Counted from the first letter of the stretch, positions 25,642-27,885 are shown. The stretch: DNA of 31,562 nucleotides from a virus (IMGVR_UViG_2645727555_000016:1-31562), one strand, 5' to 3'. Translations and numbers: made by a program. Notes: generated from the sequence alone by a model not told the origin.

Positions 25642-25840
25642 ACGGGAGAAGGAAACGCTTCATGAAATCAGTAAGTGGCCGGAGTTCCCTGAGTACTGGA
25701 AGCCTAAAACGCGAGCTAAGTTAGAGCGTTTAGGGTTGGTTGCAAACGTTTCTGAAACGAAGTGTTCGGCCAACTACCAGTTAACTGATAAAGGGAAAGT
25801 ATTGCTACAGCAATTAGTAGAATCAGGAGCGTTAAAATGA
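25625..25840 (+). CDS. Hypothetical small protein
   Basis: 71-aa ORF; overlapping start and stop with neighbours (translational coupling). Confidence 0.4.
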   Translation: MIVLSKREKETLHEISKWPEFPEYWKPKTRAKLERLGLVANVSETKCSANYQLTDKGKVLLQQLVESGALK

Positions 25841-25989
25841 TTCCATACATCTCATTAGCTTTTATGGGTGGCTTCCTTATTGGCTTCGGCATCTGTCGTG
25901 ATTTAATTAAGCAGGAACTTAAAACCAAAACACTGTGCATCGGAAAGCGTGTGTATCGGGTAGTTCATGAAACAAAGGTTAGAAAATGA
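25837..25989 (+). CDS. Small membrane protein (50 aa), not in the supplied ORF track; paralogue of 25462..25641
   Basis: ATGA overlap with the upstream stop; TM MIPYISLAFMGGFLIGFGI followed by a basic tail. Confidence 0.4.
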   Translation: MIPYISLAFMGGFLIGFGICRDLIKQELKTKTLCIGKRVYRVVHETKVRK

Positions 25990-26276
25990 GCAATTTAACT
26001 TCTTGGGACTGGTGGTTGGCCACCTATTTCTTAGCGGCCGGAGTCGCATTCGCCTTTTACGTAGGTCAGTTAGTCGTAAAACTGTTGCTGATTAAATTTG
26101 CTAGTCATAAACGTATCGATGATGGTCTGTGGCGTCTTGGCACCCTGGTGGAAACTCGCTACGGGCAACTTAAGGAGAACGAAACCATTACTATCCAAGC
26201 GAAACGATTCACTGCCACCATCACAAGAACACCTAGTCGTAGAGTGGCATTGATCAAAAAAGTCACAACCGAATAA
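25986..26276 (+). CDS. Small membrane protein
   Basis: 96 aa; N-terminal TM WWLATYFLAAGVAFAFYVGQLVV; ATGA overlap with the upstream gene. Confidence 0.4.
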   Translation: MSNLTSWDWWLATYFLAAGVAFAFYVGQLVVKLLLIKFASHKRIDDGLWRLGTLVETRYGQLKENETITIQAKRFTATITRTPSRRVALIKKVTTE

Positions 26277-26285
26277 AAATACAAT

Positions 26286-26307
26286 GATAAGTATTTACTT
26301 ACTTATC
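26286..26307. promoter_or_regulatory. Perfect palindrome GATAAGTA-TT-TACTTACTTATC built from the same GATAAGTAAGTA unit as the recurring motif; operator-like
   Basis: The right arm is the reverse complement of GATAAGTAAGTA; lies at the start of a gene-free structured region upstream of the tRNA cluster. Confidence 0.45.
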
Positions 26308-26666
26308 TTTTATGTATAAGATGACTTTGTTTTCGTTGAGACGCGACTGTTTGAACTTAAATACAAGTGCAAACGAAGAAGTCTATCTGGCAGTAGCCTA
26401 ATAAGCCAAACACCAGCGAGGTCAGTTTCCAGCCTCGTTACCGAAATGGGACACACTGAGCGAGTGTGATTGCAGAACGCAGGAGGGAACATTCATGTTC
26501 CCTCTGATGAAGTAACAGAATGGGCGGTCGTTATATTTTCAACTCAATATGACTCCCGGATTCTTAGCCACTGACCGCCCATCCTGTTACGTCATTTTGT
26601 TCAATTATGTCGTTTATACTGGGTTAAAAAGCGGCGGCGTAGCCCGGCTGGTATGGTTAGCCAGCA

Positions 26667-26788
26667 CACAACGTTGAGGCCATTACATTTTTATCAATTC
26701 TAAGGTTCTATTCACAGAGATACCGGCGAGCGTTGATATGTAACATGTTGGGCAAACATTCAATCGGAGTAGTGGCCTCAACGTTGTG
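26667..26788. repeat. Hairpin element A: 16-bp perfect inverted repeat (CACAACGTTGAGGCCA / TGGCCTCAACGTTGTG) flanking about 90 nt
   Basis: Arms 26667..26682 and 26773..26788 are exact reverse complements; arms share CTCAAC..TTGTG with elements B and C. Confidence 0.6.
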
Positions 26789-27052
26789 AAGACAGGATTG
26801 TTGTGTAGGTTTAACCACTGTTGCCATTGGTGCCTGTTTTCACAACAAATGATTCCATACATCACATTGTATAAATTACAAAGTAGGTGCTGTCCTCAGA
26901 AACATCATCTACTTAAAGATTTTGCCTTCTATTGAGCGAAGTCGAAAACGTCTGGCACTAACGAAAAGTGCAAGTAGCGGTGCGTTTATTGGCAAAAACT
27001 AACACCGCCGCGATTGGCACTGTTGAGTAATAAATACTGGCAGTGCTGAATT

Positions 27053-27127
27053 GATGGTGTAGCTCAGCGGTAGAGCAGTTGGCTGTTAACCAACTGGTCG
27101 GTGGTTCGAATCCACCCACCATCGCCA
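27053..27127 (+). tRNA. tRNA-Asn (anticodon GTT)
   Basis: Manual fold: acceptor GATGGTG/CACCATC, D-stem GCTC/GAGC, anticodon stem GTTGG/CCAAC with loop CTGTTAA, T-arm GGTGG-TTCGAAT-CCACC, discriminator G, encoded CCA. Confidence 0.75.
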
Positions 27128-27132
27128 ATTTA

Positions 27133-27219
27133 GGGGAGTTAGTCCGTAGAGGTAGCGGTGTAGACTGTAAATCTACTGTCATGGCGACTCGGGTGGTTCG
27201 ACTCCATCACTCCCCACCA
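27133..27219 (+). tRNA. tRNA-Tyr (anticodon GTA), class II with long variable arm
   Basis: Acceptor GGGGAGT/ACTCCCC, anticodon stem GTAGA/TCTAC with loop CTGTAAA, variable arm with GTC/GAC stem, T-arm GGTGG-TTCGACT-CCATC, encoded CCA; D-arm is non-canonical. Confidence 0.55.
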
Positions 27220-27223
27220 AATT

Positions 27224-27299
27224 GCCGGTTTAGCTCAGTTGGTAGAGCAGTCGCTTTGTAAGCGAATGGCCAGCGGTTCAAGTCCGTTAACCGGCACCA
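27224..27299 (+). tRNA. tRNA-Thr (anticodon TGT)
   Basis: Acceptor GCCGGTT/AACCGGC, D-stem GCTC/GAGC, anticodon stem GTCGC/GCGAA (one mismatch) with loop TTTGTAA, T-arm AGCGG-TTCAAGT-CCGTT, encoded CCA. Confidence 0.7.
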
Positions 27300-27304
27300 A
27301 CATA

Positions 27305-27395
27305 ATATTGAGAACATTGGCGTAACGGGGTCATATCCCAATCTATGAATAAATGTTGCGTTGCCGCGTGACAACCAGTGTTCTCAACATTGTGG
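27305..27395. repeat. Hairpin element B: imperfect inverted repeat (ATATTGAGAACATTGG / CCAGTGTTCTCAACATT) between tRNA-Thr and tRNA-Ser
   Basis: Two mismatches in a 16-17-bp repeat; shares the CTCAAC..TTGTG arm signature with elements A and C. Confidence 0.5.
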
Positions 27396-27494
27396 TGAAT
27401 GCACAGGCTGATGTGCCGCAACTACAGTAGTGCGCGCTTTGCGGGGCTTGCTACAACCCTGTGTCGGAGATCAGCACCGACCACCACAATCACT

Positions 27495-27581
27495 GGAGAG
27501 TAGGGAGCATGGTGCTCAAGCGGTCTTGAAAACCGTCCCATTGCGCAAGCGATGATGGTTCGATTCCATTACTCTCCGCCA
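27495..27581 (+). tRNA. tRNA-Ser (anticodon TGA), class II with long variable arm
   Basis: Acceptor GGAGAGT/ACTCTCC, anticodon stem GCGGT/ACCGT with loop CTTGAAA, long variable arm, T-arm GATGG-TTCGATT-CCATT, discriminator G, encoded CCA; D-arm slightly irregular. Confidence 0.55.
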
Positions 27582-27584
27582 GAC

Positions 27585-27660
27585 ACAGCGTTGAGCGGTT
27601 TGGCCTTTTAATCACCCAGATTAAGACTCCGCTAACATAAACCAGACCGCTCAACGCTGT
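27585..27660. repeat. Hairpin element C: 16-bp perfect inverted repeat (CACAGCGTTGAGCGGT / ACCGCTCAACGCTGTG) immediately 3' of tRNA-Ser
   Basis: Arms 27585..27600 and 27645..27660 are exact reverse complements; same arm signature as elements A and B. Confidence 0.6.
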
Positions 27661-27735
27661 GATAGACAATTACGGCAGACGTTCTTAACCATAGCTTGCT
27701 AACATCCTAGCAACACTTTTTTCAGCGCAAAATTC

Positions 27736-27758
27736 AAAGGGGCTTCGGCCCCTTTTTT
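27736..27758 (+). terminator. Rho-independent terminator (GGGGC-TTCG-GCCCC followed by TTTTTT), likely ending the tRNA transcription unit; A-tract upstream may allow bidirectional use
   Basis: Perfect GC stem with tetraloop and 6-T tract read directly. Confidence 0.7.
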
Positions 27759-27885
27759 ACTGGGTTGACTCCAGAATATTTCCAGGTATGGTTTTACCAC
27801 TTTTGGGTCTTCATTTAGCAACGGCAGCATTAGACTGCCTGCATGTGGGTGACAGGATGTGGCAGAAAAACATGGAGATAAGCCA

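Follow-up and report, generated by a model that had tools for sequence, protein, structure and literature searches.

The gene-free region upstream of the tRNA cluster in this DNA encodes a structured RNA in which a tmRNA-like tag template is joined to a segment antisense to the tmRNA of the host. This identity, which the first-pass annotation of the region had missed, is well supported, and the mechanism that we infer from it is that the phage-plasmid probably interferes with, or re-programs, ribosome rescue and tagging in its host. The tmRNA-SmpB system is the main bacterial system for ribosome rescue and quality control, and it is needed by some phages, e.g., lambda-P22 hybrids and Mu. The phage tmRNA genes known so far are complete copies or a fragment that comprises the tRNA-like domain (TLD) only (PMC4131195; PMC11915505). 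The whole analysis reported here was computational.

The window, i.e., the whole stretch of 31,562 nt that was analysed (IMGVR_UViG_2645727555_000016:1-31562), was assigned by sequence comparison to an SSU5-like phage-plasmid. With the Escherichia phages CMS-2020a and Cyrano, and likewise with about 190 E. coli plasmids of approximately 110 kb, the 1.6 kb around the region share 97% identity. In every annotated relative the roughly 770 bp between a small ORF (a homologue of SSU5_048, ending at 26276) and tRNA-Asn, the start of which was placed at 27053 by ARAGORN, are left without annotation. Neither the sequence nor a consensus scan revealed a terminator between the structured RNA and tRNA-Asn; a canonical candidate terminator hairpin with a T-run was recognized by eye 3' of the tRNA cluster at approximately 27731–27757, where the scan reported none. 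The region would be transcribed from the + strand as one structured RNA from about 26323 to 27052, toward the tRNA-Asn/Tyr/Thr/Ser cluster and probably together with it, and its 3' end would presumably be freed by RNase P cutting at tRNA-Asn, at 27053.

The 732 nt from 26321 to 27052 on the + strand fold with a minimum free energy (MFE) of −252.8 kcal/mol (z = −6.0 relative to dinucleotide shuffles, which give −196.6 ± 9.4 kcal/mol). A good fold is also predicted for the opposite strand, because inverted repeats must fold on both strands, but its MFE is weaker by 26 kcal/mol. An alignment of 38 distinct whole-region copies from SSU5-family phages, plasmids and IMG/VR contigs, which spans the E. 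coli, Salmonella/Enterobacter and Klebsiella types with a mean column identity of 75%, yielded an RNAalifold consensus of 112 pairs in 13 helices. Standard pairs occupy 99.5% of its 4249 cells, compared to 33–48% if the partners are slid by one to three columns. Doubly changed cells number 100, compared to 36.9 ± 4.5 in column shuffles (reached in 0 of 500) and 0–26 in the slid controls, whereby counts across related family members do not represent independent events. The compensatory changes are concentrated in 26482–26505 (five pairs), in the hairpin named element A (three pairs), in 26647–26665 and in the stem 26977/27008. The comparison with relatives that the first-pass annotation had proposed thus shows hairpins that are conserved as structure. 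Moreover, pairs are kept by G·U in 517 cells and appear as A·C, which is how a G·U on the other strand would look, in only 8; therefore, the structure under selection is that of a + strand RNA, in the same orientation as the tRNAs.

The first-pass annotation had offered a replication origin, a centromere or packaging site, or structured small RNAs co-transcribed with the tRNAs, and the last of these is essentially right, given the structure selected on the tRNA strand and the missing terminator before tRNA-Asn. The repeats from which it started are all present, with coordinates correct to within 1–8 nt: the palindrome GATAAGTA/TACTTATC (26286–26293/26300–26307), CACACT/AGTGTG (26452–26457/26463–26468), a tight hairpin of 10 perfect base pairs (26483–26492/26495–26504), a long inverted repeat (26507–26529/26573–26595; 23 nt, 91%) and hairpin element A (26667–26686/26769–26788; 20 nt, 95%). 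A gene-free, repeat-rich region with a palindrome (26283–26310) that could bind a protein might also suit a DNA site for replication, partition or packaging. However, there are no tandem repeats or iterons in the region and no DnaA boxes within 26200–27800, a DNA site would not tolerate the strand-specific G·U pairs, and the same module lies in tRNA clusters and late leaders of unrelated phages. We regard a DNA site as very improbable; the region is an RNA and not an origin or packaging site, and such readings are excluded as far as sequence can exclude them.

The earlier view that no convincing ORF is present held as well, since the + strand of the region contains no ORF of at least 60 aa. 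An overlooked small protein gene could be sought in an antisense ORF (26310–26492, − strand), the sole recurrent one, which forms an open frame of 55–56 aa in most SSU5-type copies, or in a mini-ORF from ATG 26849, for which the identity of the motif AATGATTCCATACATC with the start of the upstream gene at 25836 might speak. However, the antisense frame is broken in the close relative L081 and not kept in the lambdoid or Felix lineages, the frame from 26849 (+ strand) has 28 codons in the window and 5–6 in the SSU5 and Klebsiella types, and indels in the region have lengths among relatives that are not multiples of three, which makes a protein gene scarcely credible. The features of the region are collected in Table 1.

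Table 1. Features of the region and the adjoining tRNA cluster, in coordinates of the window.
Feature	Position	Strand	Remarks
AT-rich palindrome AATGATAAGTA / TACTTATCTTT	26283..26310	+	inverted repeat just 5' of the RNA; overlaps the −35 position of the putative promoter
−10-like hexamer TATAAG	26315..26320	+	7–8 nt 5' of the conserved RNA start; without good −35
Antisense block 1 GUUUUCGUUG	26329..26338	+	complementary to E. coli tmRNA nt 95–104 (CGACGAAAAC; tag codons 2–5), RNAduplex
Antisense block 2 GCGACUGUUU	26343..26352	+	complementary to E. coli tmRNA nt 82–91 (AAAUAGUCGC), RNAduplex
Tag frame GCA AAC GAA GAA GUC UAU CUG GCA GUA GCC UAA UAA = ANEEVYLAVA, two stops	26369..26404	+	resume context UUAAAUACAAGU upstream
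H5-like hairpin, CUGG 26387–26390 / CCAG 26413–26416	26387..26416	+	closes the end of the tag frame, stop codons inside
Pseudoknot A, stem GCGAGG(U)/(G)CCUCGU 26416–26422 / 26432–26438	26416..26451	+	RNAalifold
Pseudoknot A, loop UUCCA 26427–26431 pairing with UGGGA 26447–26451	26416..26451	+	in the window assigned by homology
Hairpin CACAC/GUGUG (CACACT/AGTGTG)	26452..26468	+	stem 1 of the family's second pseudoknot
Tight hairpin GAGGGAACAU/AUGUUCCCUC	26482..26505	+	helix 7; 10 pairs, 5 with compensatory double changes in 4–15 sequences each
Irregular 24-bp stem, repeat AACAGAATGGGCGGTC / GACCGCCCATCCTGTT	26506..26596	+	helix 8; variable tip of ~40 nt
Two local hairpins	26605..26665	+	helices 9, 10; UUAUGUCGUU/GGCGGCGUAA 26605–26614 / 26633–26642; GCUGGU/GCCAGC 26647–26652 / 26660–26665
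Hairpin element A, 19-bp stem CACAACGUUGAGGCCAUUA/.../GUUGUG	26667..26788	+	helix 11; variable interior of ~85 nt
3' part of the RNA	26789..27052	+	ends at tRNA-Asn; lineage-specific hairpin before tRNA-Asn
Hairpin GUUGUGAAGACAGG/CCUGUUUUCACAAC	26783–26796 / 26833–26846	+	3' part
Invariant motif AAUGAUUCCAUACAUC	26848–26863	+	3' part
Stem GCGG/CCGC	26977–26980 / 27005–27008	+	helix 13; GC->AU in 5 sequences
tRNA-Asn, Tyr, Thr, Ser cluster	27053–27581	+	ARAGORN

At the 5' border, the palindrome is conserved in the E. coli- and SSU5-type relatives and its right arm is degenerate in the Klebsiella type; it might serve as an operator, or weakly terminate the operon upstream. The hexamer TATAAG is a candidate −10 element of a putative promoter that the consensus scan did not report, and it is kept in relatives as TATAAG or TATGAT at a fixed distance. 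The Felix-type phage wV8 carries a good promoter, TTGACA-17-TATAGT, at the same place. The RNA would start 5–8 nt before the invariant GUUUUCGU in the three lineages; in lambdoid prophages a tRNA-like cassette lies upstream, and this putative start comes after its 3' strand.

The sequence from 26476 to 27052 is specific to SSU5-like elements and forms a chain of conserved hairpins of about 560 nt, which shows no complementarity or similarity to ssrA beyond a chance match of 11 nt. Within it, helix 8 is 99.5% paired with seven pairs varying solely via G·U, a GC->AU double change in helix 10 occurs in four sequences, and helix 11 contains three doubly changed pairs (in 12, 4 and 15 sequences). 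Helix 11, hairpin element A, is present in three copies in the window, the others at 27298–27397 and 27584–27661. Its homologues in lambdoid prophages are the X/X' cassette hairpins; the family has long stems, outer CACAAC/GUUGUG and interchangeable interiors, and flanks the tag module there.

Judged by its sequence, the first part of the RNA of about 170 nt (26323–26491), annotated by no tool, is a tmRNA-derived module with a resume context, a tag of ten codons in an H5-like hairpin and two pseudoknots. The covariance search of Rfam that the first-pass annotation had suggested returned nothing above threshold, and it did give weak matches to tmRNA models at 26359–26452 (beta_tmRNA, 14.4 bits; tmRNA_permuted, 14.2 bits). 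In every lineage the Rfam tmRNA models align to the resume codon, the tag and H5, with scores that never reach the threshold; in relatives, positions 83–140 of RF00023, comprising the A-rich upstream context, the resume codon, the tag and helix 5, align to the element. Furthermore, 26359–26404 of the window match nt 79–125 of ssrA in blastn. No host ssrA was matched when the element was compared by blastn to 5426 E. coli genomes, and the element is therefore an old, diverged derivative and not a recent capture.

The tag frame is intact in all 92 instances, which represent 19 unique coding sequences, and is always ten codons long and closed by an in-frame stop, for which TAA, TGA and TAG are all used. 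Seven codons vary at the third position, two at the first and two at the second, and the peptide keeps the pattern A-N-(D/E)-(D/E/N)-x-(Y/F)-L-A-V-A, next to ANDENYALAA for the tag of E. coli tmRNA, which agrees with the ssrA sequence used here. This variation is the signature of coding-type constraint as expected for a translated frame, whereby the invariance of codons 1–2 and 7–10 is confounded with RNA structure. The outer helix of the H5-like hairpin is paired in 33 of 33 sequences of the other lineages, its inner helix UAGCC/GGCUA varies compatibly, and the hairpin aligns to H5 of RF00023. In the lambdoid and Felix lineages, the loop pairing of pseudoknot A shows covariation (AU 17/GC 16 and GC 8/AU 25; 33/33 paired). 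Of the second pseudoknot, stem 1 is seen in the window and no clear second stem; this CACAC/GUGUG hairpin is invariant in the SSU5 family, and the homologous stem covaries elsewhere (CG->UA in 7; CG->UA/GC in 4).

Approximately 110–150 nt around the tag frame recur at about 76% identity in unannotated DNA of unrelated phages, as found by distant blastn. Carriers are Felix O1-like myoviruses (wV8, Moogle, Michonne and others), the P22-like HK620 and HK633, Klebsiella phage Carvaje, HK620-like lambdoid prophages, SSU5/pHCM2-like plasmids and Yersinia pestis pMT1, and tag length, stop codon and third-position variation are kept in all carrier lineages. The module occupies positions typical of small-RNA genes, in wV8 within a tRNA cluster, in Carvaje upstream of tRNA-Ser and in HK620 in the late leader between pR'/qut and the late terminator. 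As it always lies beside tRNAs or tRNA-like cassettes, it might be a degenerating piece of tmRNA carried along with phage tRNA modules, its hairpins serving only in tRNA-precursor processing or stability. In line with this, the hairpin cassettes are modular and swapped in position between relatives, and Y. pestis pMT1, in which everything beyond about 26800 is replaced by the caf1 locus, has lost the 3' half without obvious consequence. However, the module with its invariant arm blocks is kept in lineages that are only about 75% identical, and a pseudogene would gather indels and stops, which is at odds with a frame intact in 92 of 92 instances and with covarying pseudoknots. We therefore consider a mere relic improbable.

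The tRNA-like domain of a tmRNA was sought in vain. ARAGORN detected no tmRNA in the window or in nine related loci, and neither a T-loop nor a CCA-ended acceptor is present within 26277–27052. RF00023 gave no match in the window at E-values up to 10 and 10–15 bits in relatives, compared to a gathering threshold of 47; the models for permuted tmRNA, RF04321 and RF01850, gave 14.2–14.4 bits in the window and 19–29 bits in relatives, compared to thresholds of 47 and 84, respectively, with RF04321 at 14–29 bits overall. The permuted-tmRNA hit in wV8 borrows the neighboring tRNA-Ile. Several candidate parts were rejected. RNAalifold and pair counts favor local hairpins over a 5' acceptor strand upstream of GUUUUCG and over a D-arm reading of GGCGGCGUAGCCCGGCUGG (from 26631). 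A long-range acceptor stem GCGGCG/CGCCGC (26634/27006) fits less well than the local helices 9 and 13, and the seemingly compensatory A/G and C/T polymorphisms each pair locally. A T-arm inside hairpin element A was dismissed as the T-loop is lost in the window. A permuted gene using the T-arm cassettes of lambdoid relatives has the wrong order of parts and too little room, since the space between these cassettes and the GUUUUCG block does not accommodate both acceptor strands. Finally, tRNA-Asn scores as an ordinary tRNA (75.5 bits) and does not accompany the element in other lineages, which argues against its use as an acceptor part.

In place of PK1 and the 5' tRNA-like half, the RNA carries an arm that is complementary to tmRNA. 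A covariance model of the core (181 positions, 41 sequences), searched against the E. coli ssrA locus, gave a weak sense match over the tag and a match to the minus strand of ssrA. The two invariant blocks upstream of the tag frame are the reverse complement of E. coli tmRNA nt 82–104, the host resume codon included, and the lambdoid arm GUUUUCGUC..GUUAGCGACU..UUGCGG.CUUUUUA is the reverse complement of nt ~60–106. By eye, the complementarity of lambdoid arms to nt 54–106 is near-continuous, with about 38 of 45 positions in agreement; together with the minus-strand match, this identifies GUUUUCGUC as antisense. A reading of GUUUUCGUC as sense homologue of the tmRNA D-loop (GGAUUCGACG) was ruled out by the same two lines of evidence.

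In the window, RNAduplex predicts two 10-bp helices that take in codons 2–5, the frame-setting nucleotides and, within the resume codon, G90 and C91. At −26.3 kcal/mol, this SSU5-type duplex does not surpass shuffled arms in energy (z = −0.1), while lambdoid arms reach −43 to −49 kcal/mol over tmRNA 54–106 (two arms compared with shuffles, z about −4.4 and about −4.1). As shuffled arms are as low in energy as the SSU5-type, target position and not duplex energy was used as the statistic, and for the SSU5-type arm only target position is significant. In 41 of 41 arms, which are homologous and not independent observations, the best duplex covers 15–24 of the 25 nt of tmRNA 81–105; shuffled arms cover 0.8 nt on average and reached the observed value in 0/300, 2/300 and 0/300 trials. 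The sampled hosts of the family are all Enterobacterales. The block GTTTTCGT is invariant in 41 of 41 family members, and conservation within the arm is highest in the complementary blocks. The element's own codons 3–5 (GAAGAAGUC, GAUGAGCAA, GACAAUGUU and others) have diverged from GACGAAAAC of the host, so that the arm matches the host more closely than its own frame. Apart from weak helices the arm is unpaired in the consensus fold; RNAalifold pairs UGUUUG (26348–26353) with the element's own CAAACG (26370–26375). The arm could be what is left of a tmRNA fragment duplicated in inverted orientation and retained for a function in cis.

Between PK1 and helix 5, the tmRNA template is single-stranded and so accessible to the phage arm. 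We propose, and give it an even chance, that the tmRNA-like RNA, co-transcribed with the tRNAs, pairs with the host tmRNA, masks its template and offers its own tag. The module is arranged as two antisense blocks and, 16 nt further on, the resume context and tag frame in the H5-like hairpin, followed by two pseudoknots. By pairing with the host template region in vivo, the arm would mask the host resume codon and tether the phage template beside host PK1, because in an antiparallel duplex the 3' end of the arm exits right behind PK1, beside host nt ~81. From the arm to the phage resume codon there are 16 nt (26353 to 26369), and from PK1 to that of the host 11 nt (nt 79 to 90). Alanyl-tmRNA-SmpB would still rescue stalled ribosomes, translation would resume on the phage frame and the rescued chains would end in ...YLAVA instead of ...YALAA. 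As a minimum effect, antisense inhibition of host tagging would be expected.

Of the readings considered, masking the host template and presenting the phage template would be the simplest that uses all conserved parts, in effect assembling a two-piece tmRNA from a host acceptor and a phage template; natural two-piece tmRNAs show that the functions can sit on separate base-paired molecules. That host tmRNA is converted into such a hybrid, the arm silencing the host tag and the phage tag AANEEVYLAVA being added after rescue, is possible but doubtful. No case is known in which an RNA brings a template to the ribosome by base-pairing to the template region of tmRNA, and the duplex might simply block tmRNA. 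The phage tag keeps the AAN(D/E)..Y part, an SspB-type N-terminal motif, and the C-terminal ALAA with the ClpX-type LAA motif is changed to LAVA. From what has been published on recognition by SspB and ClpX, this change would be expected to alter proteolysis.

Alternatively, the RNA might be purely inhibitory, pairing with host tmRNA or soaking up factors that bind the template or the pseudoknots, so that trans-translation is shut down and the tag frame is never translated. The complementarity to the resume region is in line with this, as a duplex over the resume codon is expected to block template loading. The mycobacteriophage DS6A encodes a TLD-only tmRNA fragment thought to interfere with host trans-translation (PMC4131195; PMC11915505), and a similar molecule inhibits tmRNA (PMC4131195). 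Moreover, the Felix O1-like wV8 carries a TLD-like gene beside its tag element. However, a pure inhibitor needs neither a frame of constant length, nor stops that switch between TAA, TGA and TAG, nor third-position variation, nor a retained resume context of AUAAAU followed by GCAAACGA, and we judge pure inhibition to be unlikely, if less so than a relic.

Compared to known systems, the phage RNA shares with tmRNA (ssrA, RF00023) the resume codon GCA with its A-rich/UA upstream context, a ten-codon tag that starts with AN(D/E) and has its stops in an H5-type hairpin, and probably H-type pseudoknots after the frame, two of which are supported by covariation in the family. Unlike tmRNA, it lacks the tRNA-like domain, with neither a G3·U70 acceptor stem nor a T-arm nor CCA, and has no PK1-like structure upstream of the tag frame, where the antisense segment takes the place of PK1 and the 5' tRNA-like half, and its tag ends in LAVA and not in ALAA. 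In two-piece tmRNAs of alpha- and beta-proteobacteria and cyanobacteria (RF04321) the tRNA-like part and the template reside on separate, base-paired RNAs. These pieces come from one gene and pair via the acceptor stem and P2, whereas the putative partner of the phage RNA is a complete host tmRNA, contacted at its template region; the two-piece and permuted gene forms have been summarized (PMC11915505). DS6A represents the converse, as it keeps the tRNA-like domain and lacks the frame, while the RNA described here keeps the frame and lacks that domain. The tmRNA database papers of 2014 and 2025 cover complete tmRNAs of mycobacteriophages and of Bacillus phage G, the TLD-only DS6A and "no CDS" forms, and a template-only form is in neither (PMC4131195; PMC11915505). 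The RNA also resembles trans-encoded base-pairing small RNAs of phages and prophages in that a short conserved stretch, left single-stranded, is complementary to an RNA of the host, but its target is the non-coding tmRNA and not an mRNA, it lacks a terminator of its own, it is large (~730 nt) and it carries a reading frame. A description of such an RNA was not found in the full-text literature searched, which was largely open access.

A template-only derivative fused to an anti-tmRNA arm would give mobile elements a new means of intervening in trans-translation. If host tmRNA is indeed converted into a hybrid, mobile elements would re-program the fate of rescued proteins, a strategy common to Felix O1-like, HK620-like and SSU5-like phages and Y. 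pestis pMT1. It is predicted that carriers contain proteins ending in ...YLAVA, or show less ssrA tagging. The element is unannotated in much-studied genomes, namely the Felix O1 family, HK620 and Y. pestis pMT1, and in SSU5/pHCM2-type plasmids of Salmonella, Klebsiella and E. coli, suggesting that tmRNA finders that require a tRNA-like domain miss a class of relatives. A pattern scan of IMG/VR yielded about 80 further loci, and a scan of species-representative genomes gave 21 hits, among them only three true members, in Buttiauxella, Kluyvera and Pseudocitrobacter.

A tRNA-like gene that lacks a D-arm and is unannotated was found in the Felix O1-like phage wV8, approximately 100 nt 3′ of its tag element, i.e., the tmRNA-derived part of the RNA. 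Its parts follow in the order CGGGGCG-UAUCUCA-hairpin-23 nt-GCGGGUUCGAGUCCUGC-CGCCUCG-ACCA, and the alanine identity set (G3·U70 and A73) is present. A comparison of tmRNA nucleotides 336–363 with the 3′ end of the gene gave 78.6% identity. Against the tRNA model of Rfam the gene reaches 31.7 bits; ARAGORN made no call for it. By analogy to mycobacteriophage DS6A, which carries a tmRNA fragment consisting of the tRNA-like domain (TLD) only, the wV8 gene looks like a putative TLD-only partner or inhibitor.

tRNA-like structures also accompany the tag module in other relatives. In the lambdoid relatives, the stems of the long hairpins (CAGGTAAGRGCA / TGCTCTTTCC) surround interchangeable cassettes, one of which is a D-armless tRNA-like structure with a GGTTCGAATCC T-loop. 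This cassette is located 5′ of the tag module in loci L031 and L056 and 3′ of it in L016 and Carvaje. Element B, situated in the tRNA cluster of the window, adopts a tRNA-like fold without CCA: it has a 7-bp terminal stem (UGUGGUG/CACCACA) and two hairpins, the loops of which, GGCUGAU and AUCAGC, are mutually complementary. The Rfam search returned no family matching element B. In HK620 and lambdoid prophages, the same element is located 3′ of the tag module.

Coordinates of the features in the window and in related loci
Feature	Locus	Position	Remark
tRNA-like gene without D-arm	L003 (phage wV8)	1702-1782	unannotated
Further long-hairpin copies (n = 2)	window	27298-27397; 27584-27661	outer CACAAC/GUUGUG
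Long hairpins in relatives	L004, L005, L016, L031, L056		
Element B	window	27393-27487	between tRNA-Thr and tRNA-Ser
Lambdoid tag-module loci	L004 (HK620)	1290-1900	
Lambdoid tag-module loci	L016, L024, L031, L046, L049		
Retained part of region	L006 (Y. pestis KIM10+ pMT-1)	1497-2020	
UGUUUG (arm 3′ end) / CAAACG (own resume codon region)	window	26348-26353 / 26370-26375	RNAalifold pairing
Exact 16-nt direct repeat AATGATTCCATACATC	window	25836-25851; 26848-26863	
tRNA-Ser(UGA)	window	27495-27581	ARAGORN call
ORF directly upstream of RNA region	window and relatives	25986-26276	

In lambdoid prophages, the pR′-qut-tR′ terminator hairpin lies directly 5′ of the start of the tag module, and therefore production of the module RNA would be confined to late transcripts antiterminated by Q. 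Yersinia pestis pMT1 retains the initial ~510 nt, including the arm antisense to host tmRNA, the pseudoknots and the tag frame, which reads ANEDTYLAVA; the remainder, including tRNA-Asn, is replaced by caf1R and the F1 capsule operon. The pairing of the arm with the region of its own resume codon is without covariation because the sequences are invariant. If this pairing is real, the arm could hide its own resume codon until host tmRNA is bound.

The first copy of the 16-nt direct repeat forms the beginning of a small ORF (25837-25989), and the second shows no variation across the SSU5 family and is followed after 5–6 codons by a stop in the SSU5 and Klebsiella types. Possible readings of the repeat are a scar left by duplication and a motif with a function. 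The tRNA-Ser(UGA) is absent from the list of hits at the Rfam gathering threshold, its best model being tRNA-Sec with 44.6 bits (threshold 47). Finally, RefSeq records differ in their label for the ORF directly upstream of the RNA region: several give “C-type natriuretic protein”, which looks like an annotation artefact, and others give “hypothetical”.
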